From the NCBI GenBank assembly GCA_951406725.2, contig OX597834.1, positions 42,470,001-42,534,000 on the forward strand: 64,000 nt of DNA, given 5' to 3'. The stretch is from Octopus vulgaris (lineage: Eukaryota). Shown one piece after another: positions 4,553-64,000 of the stretch; within the stretch, counting starts at the first letter, position 1; each line of letters begins with the position of its first letter. Below the pieces are notes generated by a model that saw only the letters and a list, made by a program, of their open reading frames with translations, was not told the origin of the DNA and did not search any database. The position numbers and the translations under genes are program-made.

Positions 4553-5102
4553 CAATAAAAATAAAGGGGTAAAATTAATTAATTATCTAATTAAGTAATT
4601 TATTAATAATCATTAATTTTACCAAGTAGTTCGGTACGTTAAAATAACCTTTTTAGGTAAAATTATAGAAATATTCTATAGTTATAAACATAATTATAAT
4701 CAGGGGTTAGCTAATTGCTTCACCACGCACCGAATTTAGAAATAGGAGTTAAAATGCCTTTTCTGCCATAAACATCTCCCAAACAGTAACATTCTTTTTT
4801 ACGCAGGCAAAAAGAAAAAAATAACGAATCCCCACGACTGAGATTAGCTGCATACGCGTTTCGAGATTAAAGTAAAGTTATATTTACTTATTTCTCATCT
4901 TCAGTGCAGCATTTCGAGATATAAATTTGAGAGTGTGTTTGGATTAAATATGTACGCGATCAAACGTCATCGTATAACCGATATTCGAACACTTCTTTAC
5001 GGTAGTAGAAAAAGAATTTTAACTCCTGTTTGTAAATTCGGTGAGTAGCGAAGCAATTAGCTGACCCCTGATTATAATTATGCTTATAATCATAGAATAT
5101 TT
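4553..5102 (-). mobile_element. Non-autonomous Penelope-like element with hammerhead and 87 bp inverted partial copy
   Basis: Inverted repeat 4669-4755 / 5016-5102 (a few mismatches) surrounds the hammerhead at 4847-4910. No ORF. Confidence 0.65.
4847..4910 (-). ncRNA. Minimal type I hammerhead ribozyme motif
   Basis: Minus strand: GCTGCA-CTGAAGA-T-GAGA[26 nt]TCTC-GAAA-CGCG-TA-TGCAGC. Perfect 6 bp helix I, 4 bp helix II base, palindromic helix III, GUA site. Confidence 0.8.
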
Positions 5103-5221
5103 AACAGATACATATAGATAAATACTGTGGTGAAGATAGATATATAAATATATACAGATTGATAGATAGATACATACATACATGCATATATACATACATG
5201 CATATATACATACATGCGCAC

Positions 5222-7179: not shown

Positions 7180-7370
7180 TGAGAACGCCATGTTGAATCG
7201 TTAGCTCCTGCACGCATTTTTTTTCTCTCCTTGTTTCTTTTCTGTGTATCTTTCTGTCGAAAAGCATAGGCTCGAAACGTAAAAAACTTGTTTTATTTCT
7301 ATTCCTGAGCGCCATATTAATACTCCACCTGCCTTCGTCTTTTGTTTATTTTCGTAAACCTTCCCGTTAT
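7180..7370 (+). mobile_element. ~190 bp non-autonomous element with a variant hammerhead-like fold
   Basis: Homologous to 53958-54135(-). TCTTT-CTGTCGA-A-AAGC-ATAG-GCTC-GAAA-CG-TA-AAAAA at 7249-7286; (TA)n flanks. Confidence 0.65.
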
Positions 7371-11832: not shown

Positions 11833-12008
11833 ATTATTTACATTCGCCGGATATTTGTCCTCATCTTGTTTGTTGTTAACACAACGTTTCGGCTGATATG
11901 TTCTCCAGCCTTCATCAGACACCTGATGAAGGCTGGAGAGTATATCAGCCGAAACGTTGTATTAACAACAAACAAGATGAGGACAAATATCCGTCAAATA
12001 TAAATAAT
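11833..12008. mobile_element. Fold-back of two head-to-head hammerhead-bearing segments (86 bp arms, 4 bp spacer)
   Basis: 11833-11918 is the reverse complement of 11923-12008 with few mismatches. Confidence 0.8.
11919..11962 (+). ncRNA. Minimal hammerhead-like motif
   Basis: ACAC-CTGATGA-A-GGCTG[GAGAGTATAT]CAGCC-GAAA-CG-TT-GTAT. The inverted copy has GTGT, which would pair perfectly with ACAC. Confidence 0.65.
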
Positions 12009-26929: not shown

Positions 26930-27132
26930 ATGTGACCGCGTGTGTATCGTTGGCGATTTTTTTTCCTCCGTCTTCCCTTCCTTGGATCTTCCCTTTTTCT
27001 ATGTTTCTGATGAAGAGATCCGCTCGAAACGTTAAATCGTCCTTCTTTCTCTCCTTTCCTGAGCATCCAATAACACTATACTTGTTTCACGTCCTCGCGT
27101 TGTGTTTTCTCTTGGCATTTTCATGTTTGGAT

Positions 27133-27177: not shown

Positions 27178-27632
27178 CTCTACTCCCTGGAGAGAAAGTA
27201 GGAGAGGTATGCAGTAATATACACCTGGAAGATCCTGGAAGGAATATACACCTGGAAGAACTGGAATTGTGTCAATGCCAGAACGAGACGACACTGCATA
27301 GTGCCAAAGATCCCAGCAATGCCATCACGCTTCAGGACCAGCTTCTGCAACAGCCTGGGTTTCAAGGGCCCACACCTTTTTAATATTCTCCCAAAGAGTC
27401 TGAGGAACCTGCGCAAAGTAGATGTATGCATTTTTAAATCAAAGCTGGACCTCTTCCTGCCGAGAGTCCCAGATGAGCCTACATCACGGCCTGAGGTGCA
27501 AATGAGGGTAGCTACGTCAAATTCCATTCTTCACCAAGTGCCACATATTAGAGGAGGCTCTCAGTAATAACAGTGTAGCAAAACGGCGGTGCATCAGCAT
27601 GGCCGCAGCTATGAGCTGAAACTACAGATTAC
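27175..27632 (+). mobile_element. 3' end of a CR1/L2-group LINE (RT C-terminus plus 3' UTR)
   Basis: NSLGFKGPHLFNILPKSLRNL..VCIFKSKLDLFLPRVPDEP..ATSNSILHQ, stop near 27567, then the tail GGCGGTGCATCAGCATGGCCGCAGCTATGAGCTGAAAC. Confidence 0.8.
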
Positions 27633-28711: not shown

Positions 28712-29967
28712 CAGGCTGAGTAAAAAGTAAGCAACGTTTTGAAACATGAAATTCATCACAATGTATTTCAACAACGCGGAAATTTTATTCATCAAAGTAA
28801 GCACCGTTACAATCAACAGATTTTGCCAACGAGTTTCAAGGTTTGTTTAGTCCGATAACATAAAAATCTGGAGTTCTGGAGTTGATGAACTCTTTGAACG
28901 CACTCTCGGCATCGGTTTGATTTTTAAACTCTTTCTCTCGCAGGAAGCGATCAATTTGCTTGAAAAAGTGCTGGTCGGTAGGAAAAAGGGTCTGGGGAAT
29001 AAGCTGGTTGGAGAAGAACTTCGTAGCCAAGTTGCCCCAACTATTGGAGCGCCAATAATGAAACGTGTGGTCGAGCATTGTCATGCAGGATGTTTTGCCC
29101 ACTTCTGTTGACCAGTCTGAGACGGAGGTGTAGCAGTTTTTCGTTCATTTTGGCAATTTTATGGCAATATGTTTCTGCAGTGATTGTCTTTCTGGGTTTC
29201 AAGAAATTATAATAGATGACCCCAGAAGTACACCCCCAGACAATTACCATAACCATTTTGAAGAGTTCGGGTTTAGGAACTTTTCGGTGCTTCAATTTGG
29301 TTCACCCACTGCGAAGAACGTGTTTTATTATTGTACAGAATCCACTTTTCAGTGCAATTTACAATACGGTCGAGAAATGGATCGGCCTGGTTAAGAAGAA
29401 GAAGCGAAAAGCAAATTTCTTATCTGCGCATTCTCTGATTTTCATTCAAATCGTGTGGTACCCATTTGTCGAGCTCTTTTGATTTTCCGATTGCATATGG
29501 TTGCAGGCAGTTTTTTGGCTAACTTGATATTCATTTGCCAGTTCTCAAATGGTTTTATGTGGATCTTTCTCACTGACGTTCTTTAATTGACCGTCATCGG
29601 TGACAGATGGGCGTCCACTACGCTCACGATCTTCAAGGTTCGGTTCCCCACTGAGAAATCTATTTCCGAGCTGACCACTCATTGGTCATTTCTCACCGTA
29701 CGTTTCGATGATATCGCAAAGCGATTTCAGCTTCTTTACGTCCGTTTTTTAAGTTGAATAGGAAAATTGATCGAATATCGCGCTTTGATACTTCCATTTC
29801 AGATGATTGTAACATCGGCGAAAAAAATATCAATGTTTATTGATGCATTTGGGAAAGTCTATGTCTCTATAATTGCAAAAATATGTTTTAAAATAATACA
29901 AAACTCTGCAAAAATCAGATACAAATTCTTCATAGTTGAAAACGTTGCATATATTTTACTCAACCTG
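28712..29967 (-). mobile_element. Full-length decayed mariner transposon (1256 bp)
   Basis: TIRs CAGGCTGAGTAAAAAGTAAGCAACGTTTT / AAAACGTTGCATATATTTTACTCAACCTG within (TA)n. Transposase remnants VMVIVWG..GVIYYNFLKP..TITAETYC..LHDNARPH and PTDQHFFKQID..FINSRTPDFY; frameshifted. Confidence 0.92.
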
Positions 29968-53093: not shown

Positions 53094-53774
53094 GTCTGCG
53101 GAGACATATTTTGTAGAAAAATAAATAGTAGTCTTTTGGCTGCTATTTCTAAAATTTTCGGTATGCGGTCAAGCAACTTGTTGCTAAACCCTTATTGTTA
53201 TAATTATATATAAAAAAAACTTTTTGCATAAGTTTTTACCGAATATGGTCCTTTTCCATACCGAAAAACTACTAGGTGAAATTTGTTGATTTTATTAAAT
53301 TAATAATTTTTCACCCTATATCTGTAATCATTATTTCACTCCCCAACGACAAAACTACGAATCTTTTTCGGCAGTACTATTTTGTGACGCACATGGTAGA
53401 AAATTGGAGGGAAGTACAAACTCACTCGTCTATATAAATGTGGATATGCTGATTAGCTTTTATACGTTCTGATGACGCTTGGTCAGAAATATAAGGGGTA
53501 AGTTCTCCTAGCATCTTCAGATTTATTATTATCGGAATACTATGTTGACAAAGGAAATGGGTCTTATGATCTTAATCCAGAAACGCGTCCATAATTAATC
53601 GAAGACTGTTTGATTTCATTATTTTTCTTCTTTTTTGTCATGTGTGAGTTACAAGTCTGTGGAGACATATTTTTGTAGAAAAAGAAATAGTAACCTTTTG
53701 GCTGCTATTTTAAAAACTTTCGGTTTATAGTCAAGCAACTTGTTGCTAAACTCTTATTATTATAATTATATATA
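53094..53774 (+). mobile_element. Direct-repeat-bounded non-coding element containing hammerhead core halves
   Basis: ~120 bp direct repeats start at 53094 and 53655 (period 561). TATATAAA at 53431, CTGATGA at 53469, GAAACGCGTC at 53580. Confidence 0.65.
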
Positions 53775-53961: not shown

Positions 53962-54135
53962 AGAATTCACGAAAAAAAAAACAAAAGACGAAGCAGGCGG
54001 TGTAGACAACAAACTGATGTATTAGTTTAACGCTCAGGAATTGAAAAAGTCTTTTACGTTTCGAGCCAACGTTCTTCCACAGAAAGGAATACACAAAGAA
54101 ACAAGGAGAGAAAGAAATGTGTGTAGTGGCTGGTG
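53958..54135 (-). mobile_element. Element of the 7180-7370 family with variant hammerhead-like fold
   Basis: Minus 54087-54050: CCTTT-CTGTGGA-A-GAAC-GTTG-GCTC-GAAA-CG-TA-AAAGA. Confidence 0.65.
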
Positions 54136-57744: not shown

Positions 57745-58075
57745 TCTTTTATTTGATATTAATTGGTTGAAGGAGAGGTTTTCTTCTAGCTGATCGTCCA
57801 TAATACCCAAGCTTATGCAGATATGTAATCCATGTTCTTGGCCTAACTTCTAGCTGTTTTGTAATGTCAGAAGCCTTCGAACGGGGTTCGTTTTCCACAA
57901 TTCGCTTCAAACAGCAAAGCTTCCTTTCCGAGGGCCCAAGTCGGCCGGGACGAGAATCTGTTGCTTCTTTTCCCTGGCTTTTGGTTTGCACTATAATTCT
58001 ATTAACAGTAGCAAGAAGAATTTGAAGATTTTCGGCAATTTTTCGCTGGCTAAGACCAGCCTCAGATTGTCCAAC
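57745..58075 (-). mobile_element. Tc1 transposase N-terminal fragment
   Basis: [52 protein letters not shown], the Tc1/Tc3 second HTH and KPLL motif. Confidence 0.8.
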
Positions 58076-58224
58076 AGTTTCCGACTACCAAATCCACTCA
58101 CAGGGCTTTGGTCATCTCGAGGCTATACTAGAAGACACTTGCCCAAGGTTTCACGCAGTGGGACTGAACCCTGAACCATGTGGTTGGTAACCCAGATACT
58201 TACCACACAGCCACTCCTGCGCCT
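58075..58224 (-). mobile_element. SINE family B, 5' head
   Basis: Reverse complement of 34965-35115. Confidence 0.88.
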
Positions 58225-63336: not shown

Positions 63337-64000
63337 TTAATAATAATAATAATAACTTGCCCTGATGTAATACCAGGCAGTGGCTCTCGTAGCTTCTGAT
63401 CTTAACTGATTGGAAGTGTTATCATATATTGTTTTGTCTTGGTATAAAAGATGGGCTACAGCAAATATTCTGCTCAATACCACAGATTTGCTTGTCAGTT
63501 GTTTGACCTTAACCAGTTGCTGACGATGTGTGCATCTCTGACCACAAACAGGAGTAGTGGGGGAGCATCATAGCCGTGTGCTGAAAGGAATTCTTTGAGG
63601 TTTGGATAACTCACCTCTGGAAACATGGGTGTTTCATTCAACATCCTTAAACAACCCTTATTCAGGGACGTTTTGAGCAGGAGGATACATATGTAGGTAT
63701 GTGTGTATGTACATTTCTTTCACCGCTCTTTTAATCATTTCTCTTTTATTTATTTATGCATTTTATTCTGTCTAATTAACTAAATAATTAATTAATTTTA
63801 CTTTTTAATGATATTATGTATTATTTGAGTTTATCATTTGAATTTATTTCAATTTTTCTCAAAATGAACGAATAATTCACAATTTATACAAAAATTTATC
63901 TATGATATGACATTGTTAATTATTTTTGTTACGTAAATAATTAAAACTATTGTCTACGCTAAGAAAGTTTAAATTATTTTGCGAATTATGTTTATAAAAT

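Follow-up and report, generated by a model that had tools for sequence, protein, structure and literature searches.

Animal genomes contain thousands to over 100,000 hammerhead motifs (PMC4209133, PMC7229834). Those closest to the motif studied here are the type I hammerheads described in the terminal repeats of Penelope-like elements (PLEs) (Cervera and De la Pena 2014, PMC4209133). Their consensus is given there as CUGANGAH, G...C, GAAAN, a palindrome, NU and H, with an unpaired base after the 5' core and a G10.1-C11.1 pair; helix III is palindromic and needs a dimer, helix I is typically of 4-5 bp in the minimal form, and helix II is a single stem of 7-8 bp. They occur as dispersed single copies and as opposite-strand pairs, and a swap to a U3-A8 core is reported for PLEs of Schistosoma. 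Fig. S3 of that paper includes an Aedes aegypti family with a CGCG palindrome, and its molluscs are Lottia and Crassostrea, with no cephalopod. With regard to genomic architecture, PLE insertions are described as mostly 5'-truncated, leaving one terminal repeat (PMC8557442; Li et al. 2026). They form partial tandems, carry at the 5' end an inverted 5'-truncated copy that creates flanking inverted repeats, show a one-sided tail of 30-40 bp and target microsatellites (Craig et al. 2021, PMC8557442); the Naiad clade is described in the same source as being without canonical hammerheads.

A second group comprises the canonical metazoan type I hammerheads of non-LTR retrozymes, which have a helix I of 6 bp and a proximal helix II of 4 bp (Cervera and De la Pena 2020, PMC7229834; Li, Clavereau and Pollet 2026, bioRxiv 10.64898/2026.07.22.740005). 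Their units are short, non-coding and low in GC, with lengths given as 150-450 bp in PMC7229834 and 51-972 bp in Li et al. 2026; the latter also reports frequent solo monomers and a descent from PLE terminal repeats. For cephalopods, the titles and abstract openings of the open-access literature, on which this judgement mostly relies, yielded no description of a hammerhead. In the main text of a paper on Octopus vulgaris repeats, which reports PLE families in this species (PMC13282606), the words 'hammerhead' and 'ribozyme' are absent.

The window analysed here, a stretch of 64,000 nt of Octopus vulgaris DNA, contains on its minus strand a motif that is, as read from its sequence, a complete type I hammerhead with predicted cleavage. 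Its parts are the following:

4847 to 4910, minus strand: type I hammerhead ribozyme with a C3-G8 core and a GUA triplet (sequence, descriptor with shuffles, folding)
4897 to 4904, minus strand: 5' core CUGAAGA plus an unpaired U between A9 and G10.1, which fits CUGANGAH (PMC4209133)
4863 to 4896, minus strand: helix II, with 4 bp, a 3x3 internal loop AAU/UAA, a 7-bp distal stem and a 6-nt loop
4854 to 4859, minus strand: palindromic helix III segment ACGCGU, predicted by folding and co-folding to pair only between two copies
4842 to 4846, minus strand: flank UAAUC, conserved in a relative within the window and opening with the unpaired U1.7, a candidate tertiary-contact nucleotide

Read along the minus strand from 4910, the order is GCUGCA, CUGAAGA, U, GAGA, AAU, AAGUAAA, the 6-nt loop, UUUACUU, UAA, UCUC, GAA, ACGCGU, A and UGCAGC. 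The conserved core (CUGANGA, GAAA and NUH) is present in full and in the correct order, with CUGAAGA at 4904-4898, the extra U at 4897, G12 at 4862, ACGCGU at 4859-4854 and A17 at 4853. Helix I joins GCUGCA (4910-4905) to UGCAGC (4852-4847) by six of six Watson-Crick pairs, proximal helix II joins GAGA (4896-4893) to UCUC (4866-4863) by four of four, and the distal stem AAGUAAA/UUUACUU, closed by the 6-nt loop, pairs at seven of seven positions; all 17 pairs are Watson-Crick. The original prediction had placed a full core (CUGAAGA, GAAA, GUA), a perfect 6-bp helix I and both stems of helix II on this strand, and each element is found where it was said to be; the 3x3 loop AAU/UAA went unmentioned. 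Its predicted cut, between 4853 and 4852 on the minus strand, agrees with the alignment of the motif, and G12 was rightly chosen as the position for a negative control. It had also singled out this hammerhead as the best preserved, which holds for the window: five hammerhead-like matches occur in it, and only here does helix I pair at six of six positions. The interval 4847-4910 covers the motif and leaves out U1.7, the very next base (4846); the surrounding element, described below, had been passed over in silence.

This motif agrees with the PLE-hammerhead consensus of PMC4209133 at every point. Its PLE marks are the unpaired U at 4897, the pair G 4896-C 4863 (G10.1-C11.1) and the palindrome CGCG at 15.2-16.2, the last as in the Aedes aegypti family. 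In the window, too, copies are found dispersed and single as well as in pairs on opposite strands. It departs from the minimal PLE form in having a helix I of 6 bp and a helix II composed of 4 bp, the 3x3 loop and the distal stem; no PLE reading frame is attached to it. Its helix I and proximal helix II have the sizes found in the hammerheads of retrozymes, whereas loop 2 is internal here and terminal in theirs. Apart from these few details of shape, the hammerhead at 4910-4847 is ordinary.

The extra U had been regarded in the original prediction as the only deviation from a hammerhead. It is indeed present, but it is normal for PLE hammerheads, since the consensus CUGANGAH includes that position (PMC4209133). 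The (+) hammerhead of Chrysanthemum chlorotic mottle viroid also has an extra nucleotide after A9, at the same position, with U as the fastest variant, and a U there is reported to have raised the rate of a viroid hammerhead 3-4-fold (review PMC3705267, at second hand). The viroid hammerhead differs from the octopus motif in its helix III, which is long and stable (7 bp, PMC1636495), and in being part of an infectious RNA; the likeness implies no common origin. The GUA triplet is found in natural hammerheads and cuts somewhat more slowly than GUC (PMC1636495). In the Anolis element, the reading frame begins at stem II (PMC11167929). The extra U of the octopus copy opens an AUG that meets a stop after four codons, and a frame start of the Anolis kind was rejected for 4910-4847 because of this stop.

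A descriptor with minima of 6 bp for helix I and 4 bp for helix II, thresholds that were picked post hoc and yet equal the canonical published sizes (PMC4209133), had one match in the window, against matches in 5 of 2922 block-wise dinucleotide shuffles. Its stricter form, which adds the palindromic helix III, matched in none of the 2922. The 64-mer folds with a z-score of -3.59, which none of 200 shuffles equalled; this signal weakens with flanks, 6 of 200 shuffles being as good at 101 nt and 57 of 200 at 146 nt. Rfam gave no hammerhead over the whole window at the gathering score (0 matches) and none over 4600-5110 at E<=10, leaving no family assignable to the motif. Over the whole window at E<=10 there were 640 Rfam matches, and the 150 listed were microRNA models on microsatellites. 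The silence of Rfam and the fading of the folding signal once flanks are included are what would be expected of a chance resemblance to a short motif within AT-rich DNA. However, the shuffles do not reproduce the motif, and a diverged relative retains its architecture in different letters; we regard the chance of a fortuitous match as negligible.

That relative lies at 53 kb, and the comparison between the two loci delimits the repeat unit to which the hammerhead belongs:

53094 to 53774, plus strand: related element, a partial tandem of a truncated copy of 119 nt (53094-53212) and a unit of 562 nt (53213-53774)
53539 to 53595, plus strand: hammerhead of the relative, with the U3-A8 core UUGACAA, GUC and C17 at 53589 (descriptor, alignment)
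4556 to 5006, minus strand: main copy of the repeat unit, 5'-shortened, plus a run-on of about 110 nt matching the start of the next unit (match to the relative, BLAST, nhmmer)
4669 to 4764, minus strand: the 96 nt at the 3' end of the unit, forming the left arm of an inverted repeat
5007 to 5102, plus strand: inverted 5'-truncated second copy (the last 96 nt of the unit), with a head-to-head junction at 5006/5007

The relative is 64-70% identical to the 4.6-5.0 kb locus, and (TA)n runs flank it on both sides. Within it, the arm segment is present twice in direct orientation (88% over 120 nt), which defines the 562-nt unit, and the 119-nt piece is a fragment of this unit's own 3' end. The unit is non-coding with 31% GC, and its circular fold has a z-score of about -3.0 (60 shuffles); that of the main copy near 4.8 kb is about -3.5 (n=60). 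At the latter locus, the unit runs from 5006 to 4669 as the truncated copy and continues as the run-on to about 4556 (4556-4668). Three segments (run-on, upstream and downstream) match the relative with scores reached by 0, 1 and 0 of 1000 base shuffles, respectively. No third copy of the family was detected by nhmmer in the window at E<0.2, and no second hammerhead of the family was found in cis near 4847-4910 within the window, each locus having one. A stretch of 29 nt at 63773-63801, very AT-rich and near the window end, is 90% identical to 4569-4597; nhmmer did not extend this match, which is therefore probably a chance hit or a remnant. A distant BLAST of 4560-5102 against a phage collection gave no match. 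The family signature pattern found two matches in prokaryote genomes, which were taken as chance because both are without the upstream core.

The arms 4669-4764 and 5007-5102 are identical at 85 of 96 positions, ungapped, and bound a stretch of 434 nt (4669-5102). Such a stretch between arms that are 89% complementary would suit a MITE with 96-nt terminal inverted repeats that had captured a hammerhead-bearing fragment, and remnants of Tc1/mariner transposons are present in the window. However, the stretch homologous to the relative extends for about 110 nt outside the left arm (0 of 1000 shuffles), so the element does not end at this arm. At 53 kb, moreover, the same arm segment is a direct repeat, and a check for target-site duplications showed that the flanks share only microsatellite words. 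This explanation is largely refuted, and we consider it very improbable.

With regard to the hammerhead of the relative, its helix I (ACUAUG/CAUAAU) forms five of six pairs. Relative to 4910-4847, four of the six pairs are changed on both sides, one is unchanged and one is broken, while the core has been swapped from C3-G8 to U3-A8, as reported for Schistosoma. The ACGCGU palindrome and the AAU/UAA internal loop are kept, over a different distal stem of 5 bp. The flanks CG(A/G)AAU and UAAUC are common to both loci, and UAAUC follows helix I in both. In simulations, the chance of a compensated helix I was 1-3 x 10^-4 at the background divergence of 36%, and 0.015-0.038 at the change rate of 75% seen in the helix I columns themselves. 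The observed pairing was reached by 43 of 500 column shuffles, which are a weak control with two sequences only, and when the partner strand was slid the paired cells fell from 93% to 7-36%. Judging from these two sequences only, the pairing of helix I is kept by compensatory change. At its base, helix II of the relative has an A.A mismatch or a double bulge, and helix I of the relative's monomer does not fold in the energy model; the relative is therefore the more decayed of the two. A search restricted to CUGA would miss its U3-A8 hammerhead at 53539-53595. About 70 nt upstream of both hammerheads, the loci share a further stretch, 53466-53485 (+) and 4958-4975 (-), which reads CUGAUGA in the relative and thus resembles a 5' core; it failed the descriptor.

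The two arms have diverged at 11 of 96 sites, which makes the copy at 4847-4910 an old one. This divergence corresponds to a change of about 6% per copy since insertion, and about 4 substitutions would be expected per 64 nt. Under neutral decay, the core and the proximal helices would remain untouched with P = 0.11, and with the distal stem included P is 0.05. In view of these values and of the choice of the best among several motifs, the intactness of the hammerhead does not demand selection.

In the folded 64-mer, helices I and II have pair probabilities of 0.88-1.0, and all 17 pairs lie at 0.78-1.0. The energy model also pairs U 4897 with G12 (probability 0.83); the sheared G12-A9 pair found in the active core is not represented in models of this kind. 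The helix III of the original prediction, A-CGCG-U, is present as a sequence, but it does not form in the modelled monomer: its probability is 0.000, and closing A15.1-U16.1 over CGCG costs about 5 kcal/mol (-10.4 versus -15.4). Two copies co-fold best as a double hammerhead with a helix III of 6 bp, at -40.3 kcal/mol versus -33.2 kcal/mol for two monomers. According to these models, helix III is the limiting part, and the motif should work only as a pair. The axolotl hammerhead HHR_Amex1 likewise has a helix III of a single pair, capped by a palindromic tetraloop; 6% of its monomer was cut in 1 h, and the dimer performed far better (PMC7229834). Minimal PLE hammerheads are reported to cleave poorly, even when dimeric (PMC4209133).

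The native surroundings alter this picture. In a long native context, the probability of helix I drops to 0.36, as both the 5' strand of helix I and the CUGAAG of the core can base-pair with sequence further downstream; the competing fold is predicted to be more stable than the open-core fold by 1.2-2.1 kcal/mol. A 3' flank reaching 4820 permits this core-hiding fold, whereas constructs with a 3' end at 4830 or above have a helix I probability of 0.95-0.98. Because the copy at 4847-4910 lacks a partner in cis and can adopt a core-hiding fold with its flanks, it probably cuts little in place. For a dimer or a construct with extended helices, our judgement leans towards measurable cleavage. The motif had been described as likely testable as is; it is real, yet a test needs a dimer, U1.7 (4846) and a 3' flank that ends by 4830. 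The proposal to take non-cleavage as a refutation was too strong: the Penelope hammerhead of the lizard Anolis cleaved only in the presence of its protein (PMC11167929), and one of nine predicted Xenopus dimers was cut while the other eight were not (Li et al. 2026, bioRxiv 10.64898/2026.07.22.740005).

The octopus motif has both U1.7 (4846) and the A that precedes position 11.4. For other hammerheads, a contact of U1.7 with the final A of loop 2 has been proposed (PMC11875169, PMC6155905); a section heading of PMC11875169 states that U1.7 is not essential in its enzyme. The letters of the loop and the flanks are common to the motif and its relative, and with loop 2 being internal here, a tertiary contact is a putative one. 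These two nucleotides, the helix sizes of 6 bp and 4 bp, which are canonical, and the intact core with all 17 monomer pairs would also suit a ribozyme recruited by the host, that is, an efficient monomer that cuts a host transcript, aided by an interaction of the helix I flank with the internal loop of helix II. Against this, the energy model forbids helix III in the monomer and favours the competing fold in context by the margin given above, the intact motif fits neutral decay (P = 0.05-0.11), and no gene was identified at the locus. We therefore consider recruitment by the host to be highly unlikely.

With regard to origin, we consider it likely that this type I hammerhead is carried by a PLE family and that its non-coding unit of about 560 nt was most likely moved by PLE enzymes. 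The architecture at the two loci comprises the partial tandem 53094-53774, the inversion at 5006/5007 with its 5'-truncated copy, a one-sided extension of about 110 nt and insertion into microsatellite DNA, all of which have counterparts in PLEs (PMC8557442). Head-to-head inversion is a trait of PLEs and sets the locus near 4.8 kb apart from described retrozymes. The extension, in contrast, is longer than the 30-40 bp described. A Pfam search of 150 of the 413 complex stop-to-stop frames of the window, namely the longest and those near both loci, returned no reverse transcriptase and no GIY-YIG domain; the link to PLEs is consequently one of architecture and ribozyme type, and not of sequence identity to a named PLE. 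All six frames at both loci (4.6-5.1 kb and 53 kb) are interrupted by stops, with no surviving reading frame, and the best ESM Atlas score for a 57-aa frame at 53299-53469, 0.88, was uninformative. An autonomous PLE was rejected for these loci on account of the interrupted frames and because the 150 of 413 frames scanned gave no reverse transcriptase or GIY-YIG match.

The unit also resembles a non-LTR retrozyme in being short, non-coding, low in GC and self-paired (562 nt, 31% GC), and its length lies within the range of 51-972 bp given by Li et al. 2026 while exceeding that of PMC7229834. We nevertheless rejected filing the loci as retrozymes, because the definition of Li et al. 2026 asks for two consecutive hammerhead-bearing units and neither locus has such a tandem. 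With its single hammerhead, each locus is comparable to a retrozyme monomer.

The same ribozyme could instead belong to a terminal-repeat (pLTR) remnant of a protein-coding PLE of full length, in which case the 562-nt unit at 53 kb would be a one-off internal deletion. This differs from the reading that we prefer only in whether the short unit moved independently. It is consistent with the prevalence of 5'-truncated PLE insertions with one terminal repeat left and with the PLEs reported in octopus (PMC13282606); a deletion joint could sit in 53327-53435, about 110 nt that have no counterpart in the main copy. Against it, no coding remnant was found around either copy, and whole units fold better than their shuffles, although neither argument is strong. 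We consider a pLTR remnant a real possibility, yet not the probable one.

For a short unit moved by PLE enzymes, the following course of events can be proposed. A tandem or read-through transcript would carry at least two units, as suggested by the partial tandem at 53 kb and by the 110-nt run-on at 4556-4668. In the computed structure, two hammerheads would join through ACGCGU into a 6-bp helix III with their helix I strands swapped. Each would then cut after GUA by the standard G12/G8 chemistry, which leaves 2',3'-cyclic phosphate and 5'-OH ends. Cleavage would free a unit-length RNA, which may be circularised. A PLE reverse transcriptase and GIY-YIG endonuclease would copy this RNA into TA-rich sites, and such copying would yield partial tandems and head-to-head inverted 5'-truncated copies, the architecture that is observed. 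The copy at 4847-4910 would be an old single insertion whose core was kept by chance or by mild constraint.

The rest of the window reads as non-coding animal DNA, and its short interspersed repeats look similar to octopus repeats. Its GC content is 27-43% in 2-kb steps, and nearly all of its long reading frames are translations of simple repeats. Tandem Repeats Finder returned 204 rows, mostly microsatellites, and none of the 150 rows listed was an array spanning the motif. A sigma-70 scan, which has no bearing on a eukaryote, gave 3 sites versus 4.8 expected. The two Pfam matches above cut-off in the 150 of 413 frames scanned are both remnants of DNA transposases far from the motif, one of the mariner type at 29044-29301 (-) (Transposase_1, E 1e-13) and one of the Tc1 type at 57752-58084 (-) (HTH_Tnp_Tc3_2, E 6e-8). 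A frame of 121 aa at 27202-27564 (+) has no Pfam match and two related proteins at 38-45% identity; we take it to resemble the end of a LINE reading frame.

Further hammerhead-like sequences are scattered through the window. A palindrome of 176 nt at 11833-12008, 91% self-complementary, contains two head-to-head minimal hammerheads, both with an ACGU palindrome, whose cores lie at 11923 (+) and 11918 (-). As only 4 nt lie between these cores, one copy is cut off right at C3; the palindrome is a second inverted 5'-truncated junction of the PLE type, from another family. A minimal hammerhead of a third family lies at 27001-27039 (+), with CUGAUGA, an extra A, a helix II of 3 bp, ACGU and GUU, and with four of six pairs in helix I. 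At 7250-7285 (+) and about 54040-54090 (-), related repeats have a decayed 5' core before an intact GAAACGU and are probably dead copies of a further hammerhead-bearing family.

A bolder extension of the preferred reading is that the loci represent an undescribed family of PLE-dependent retrozymes of about 560 nt, with a circular RNA, a dimer-only hammerhead whose AAU/UAA loop docks on the helix I flanks, and C3-G8 and U3-A8 subfamilies. We put this forward tentatively and think it rather unlikely. If it were true, the family would link the minimal hammerheads of PLEs to the canonical ones of retrozymes, its two subfamilies would form a natural pair of C3-G8 and U3-A8 cores on one scaffold, and a conserved AAU/UAA internal loop would replace the usual terminal loop 2. 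As a single find, the motif matters little, such motifs being abundant in animal genomes. The role of hammerheads in Penelope elements is nevertheless a standing question (PMC8557442, PMC11167929), and the window gives a ready test case, supplying two natural variants of one scaffold together with a possible tertiary contact through an internal loop.
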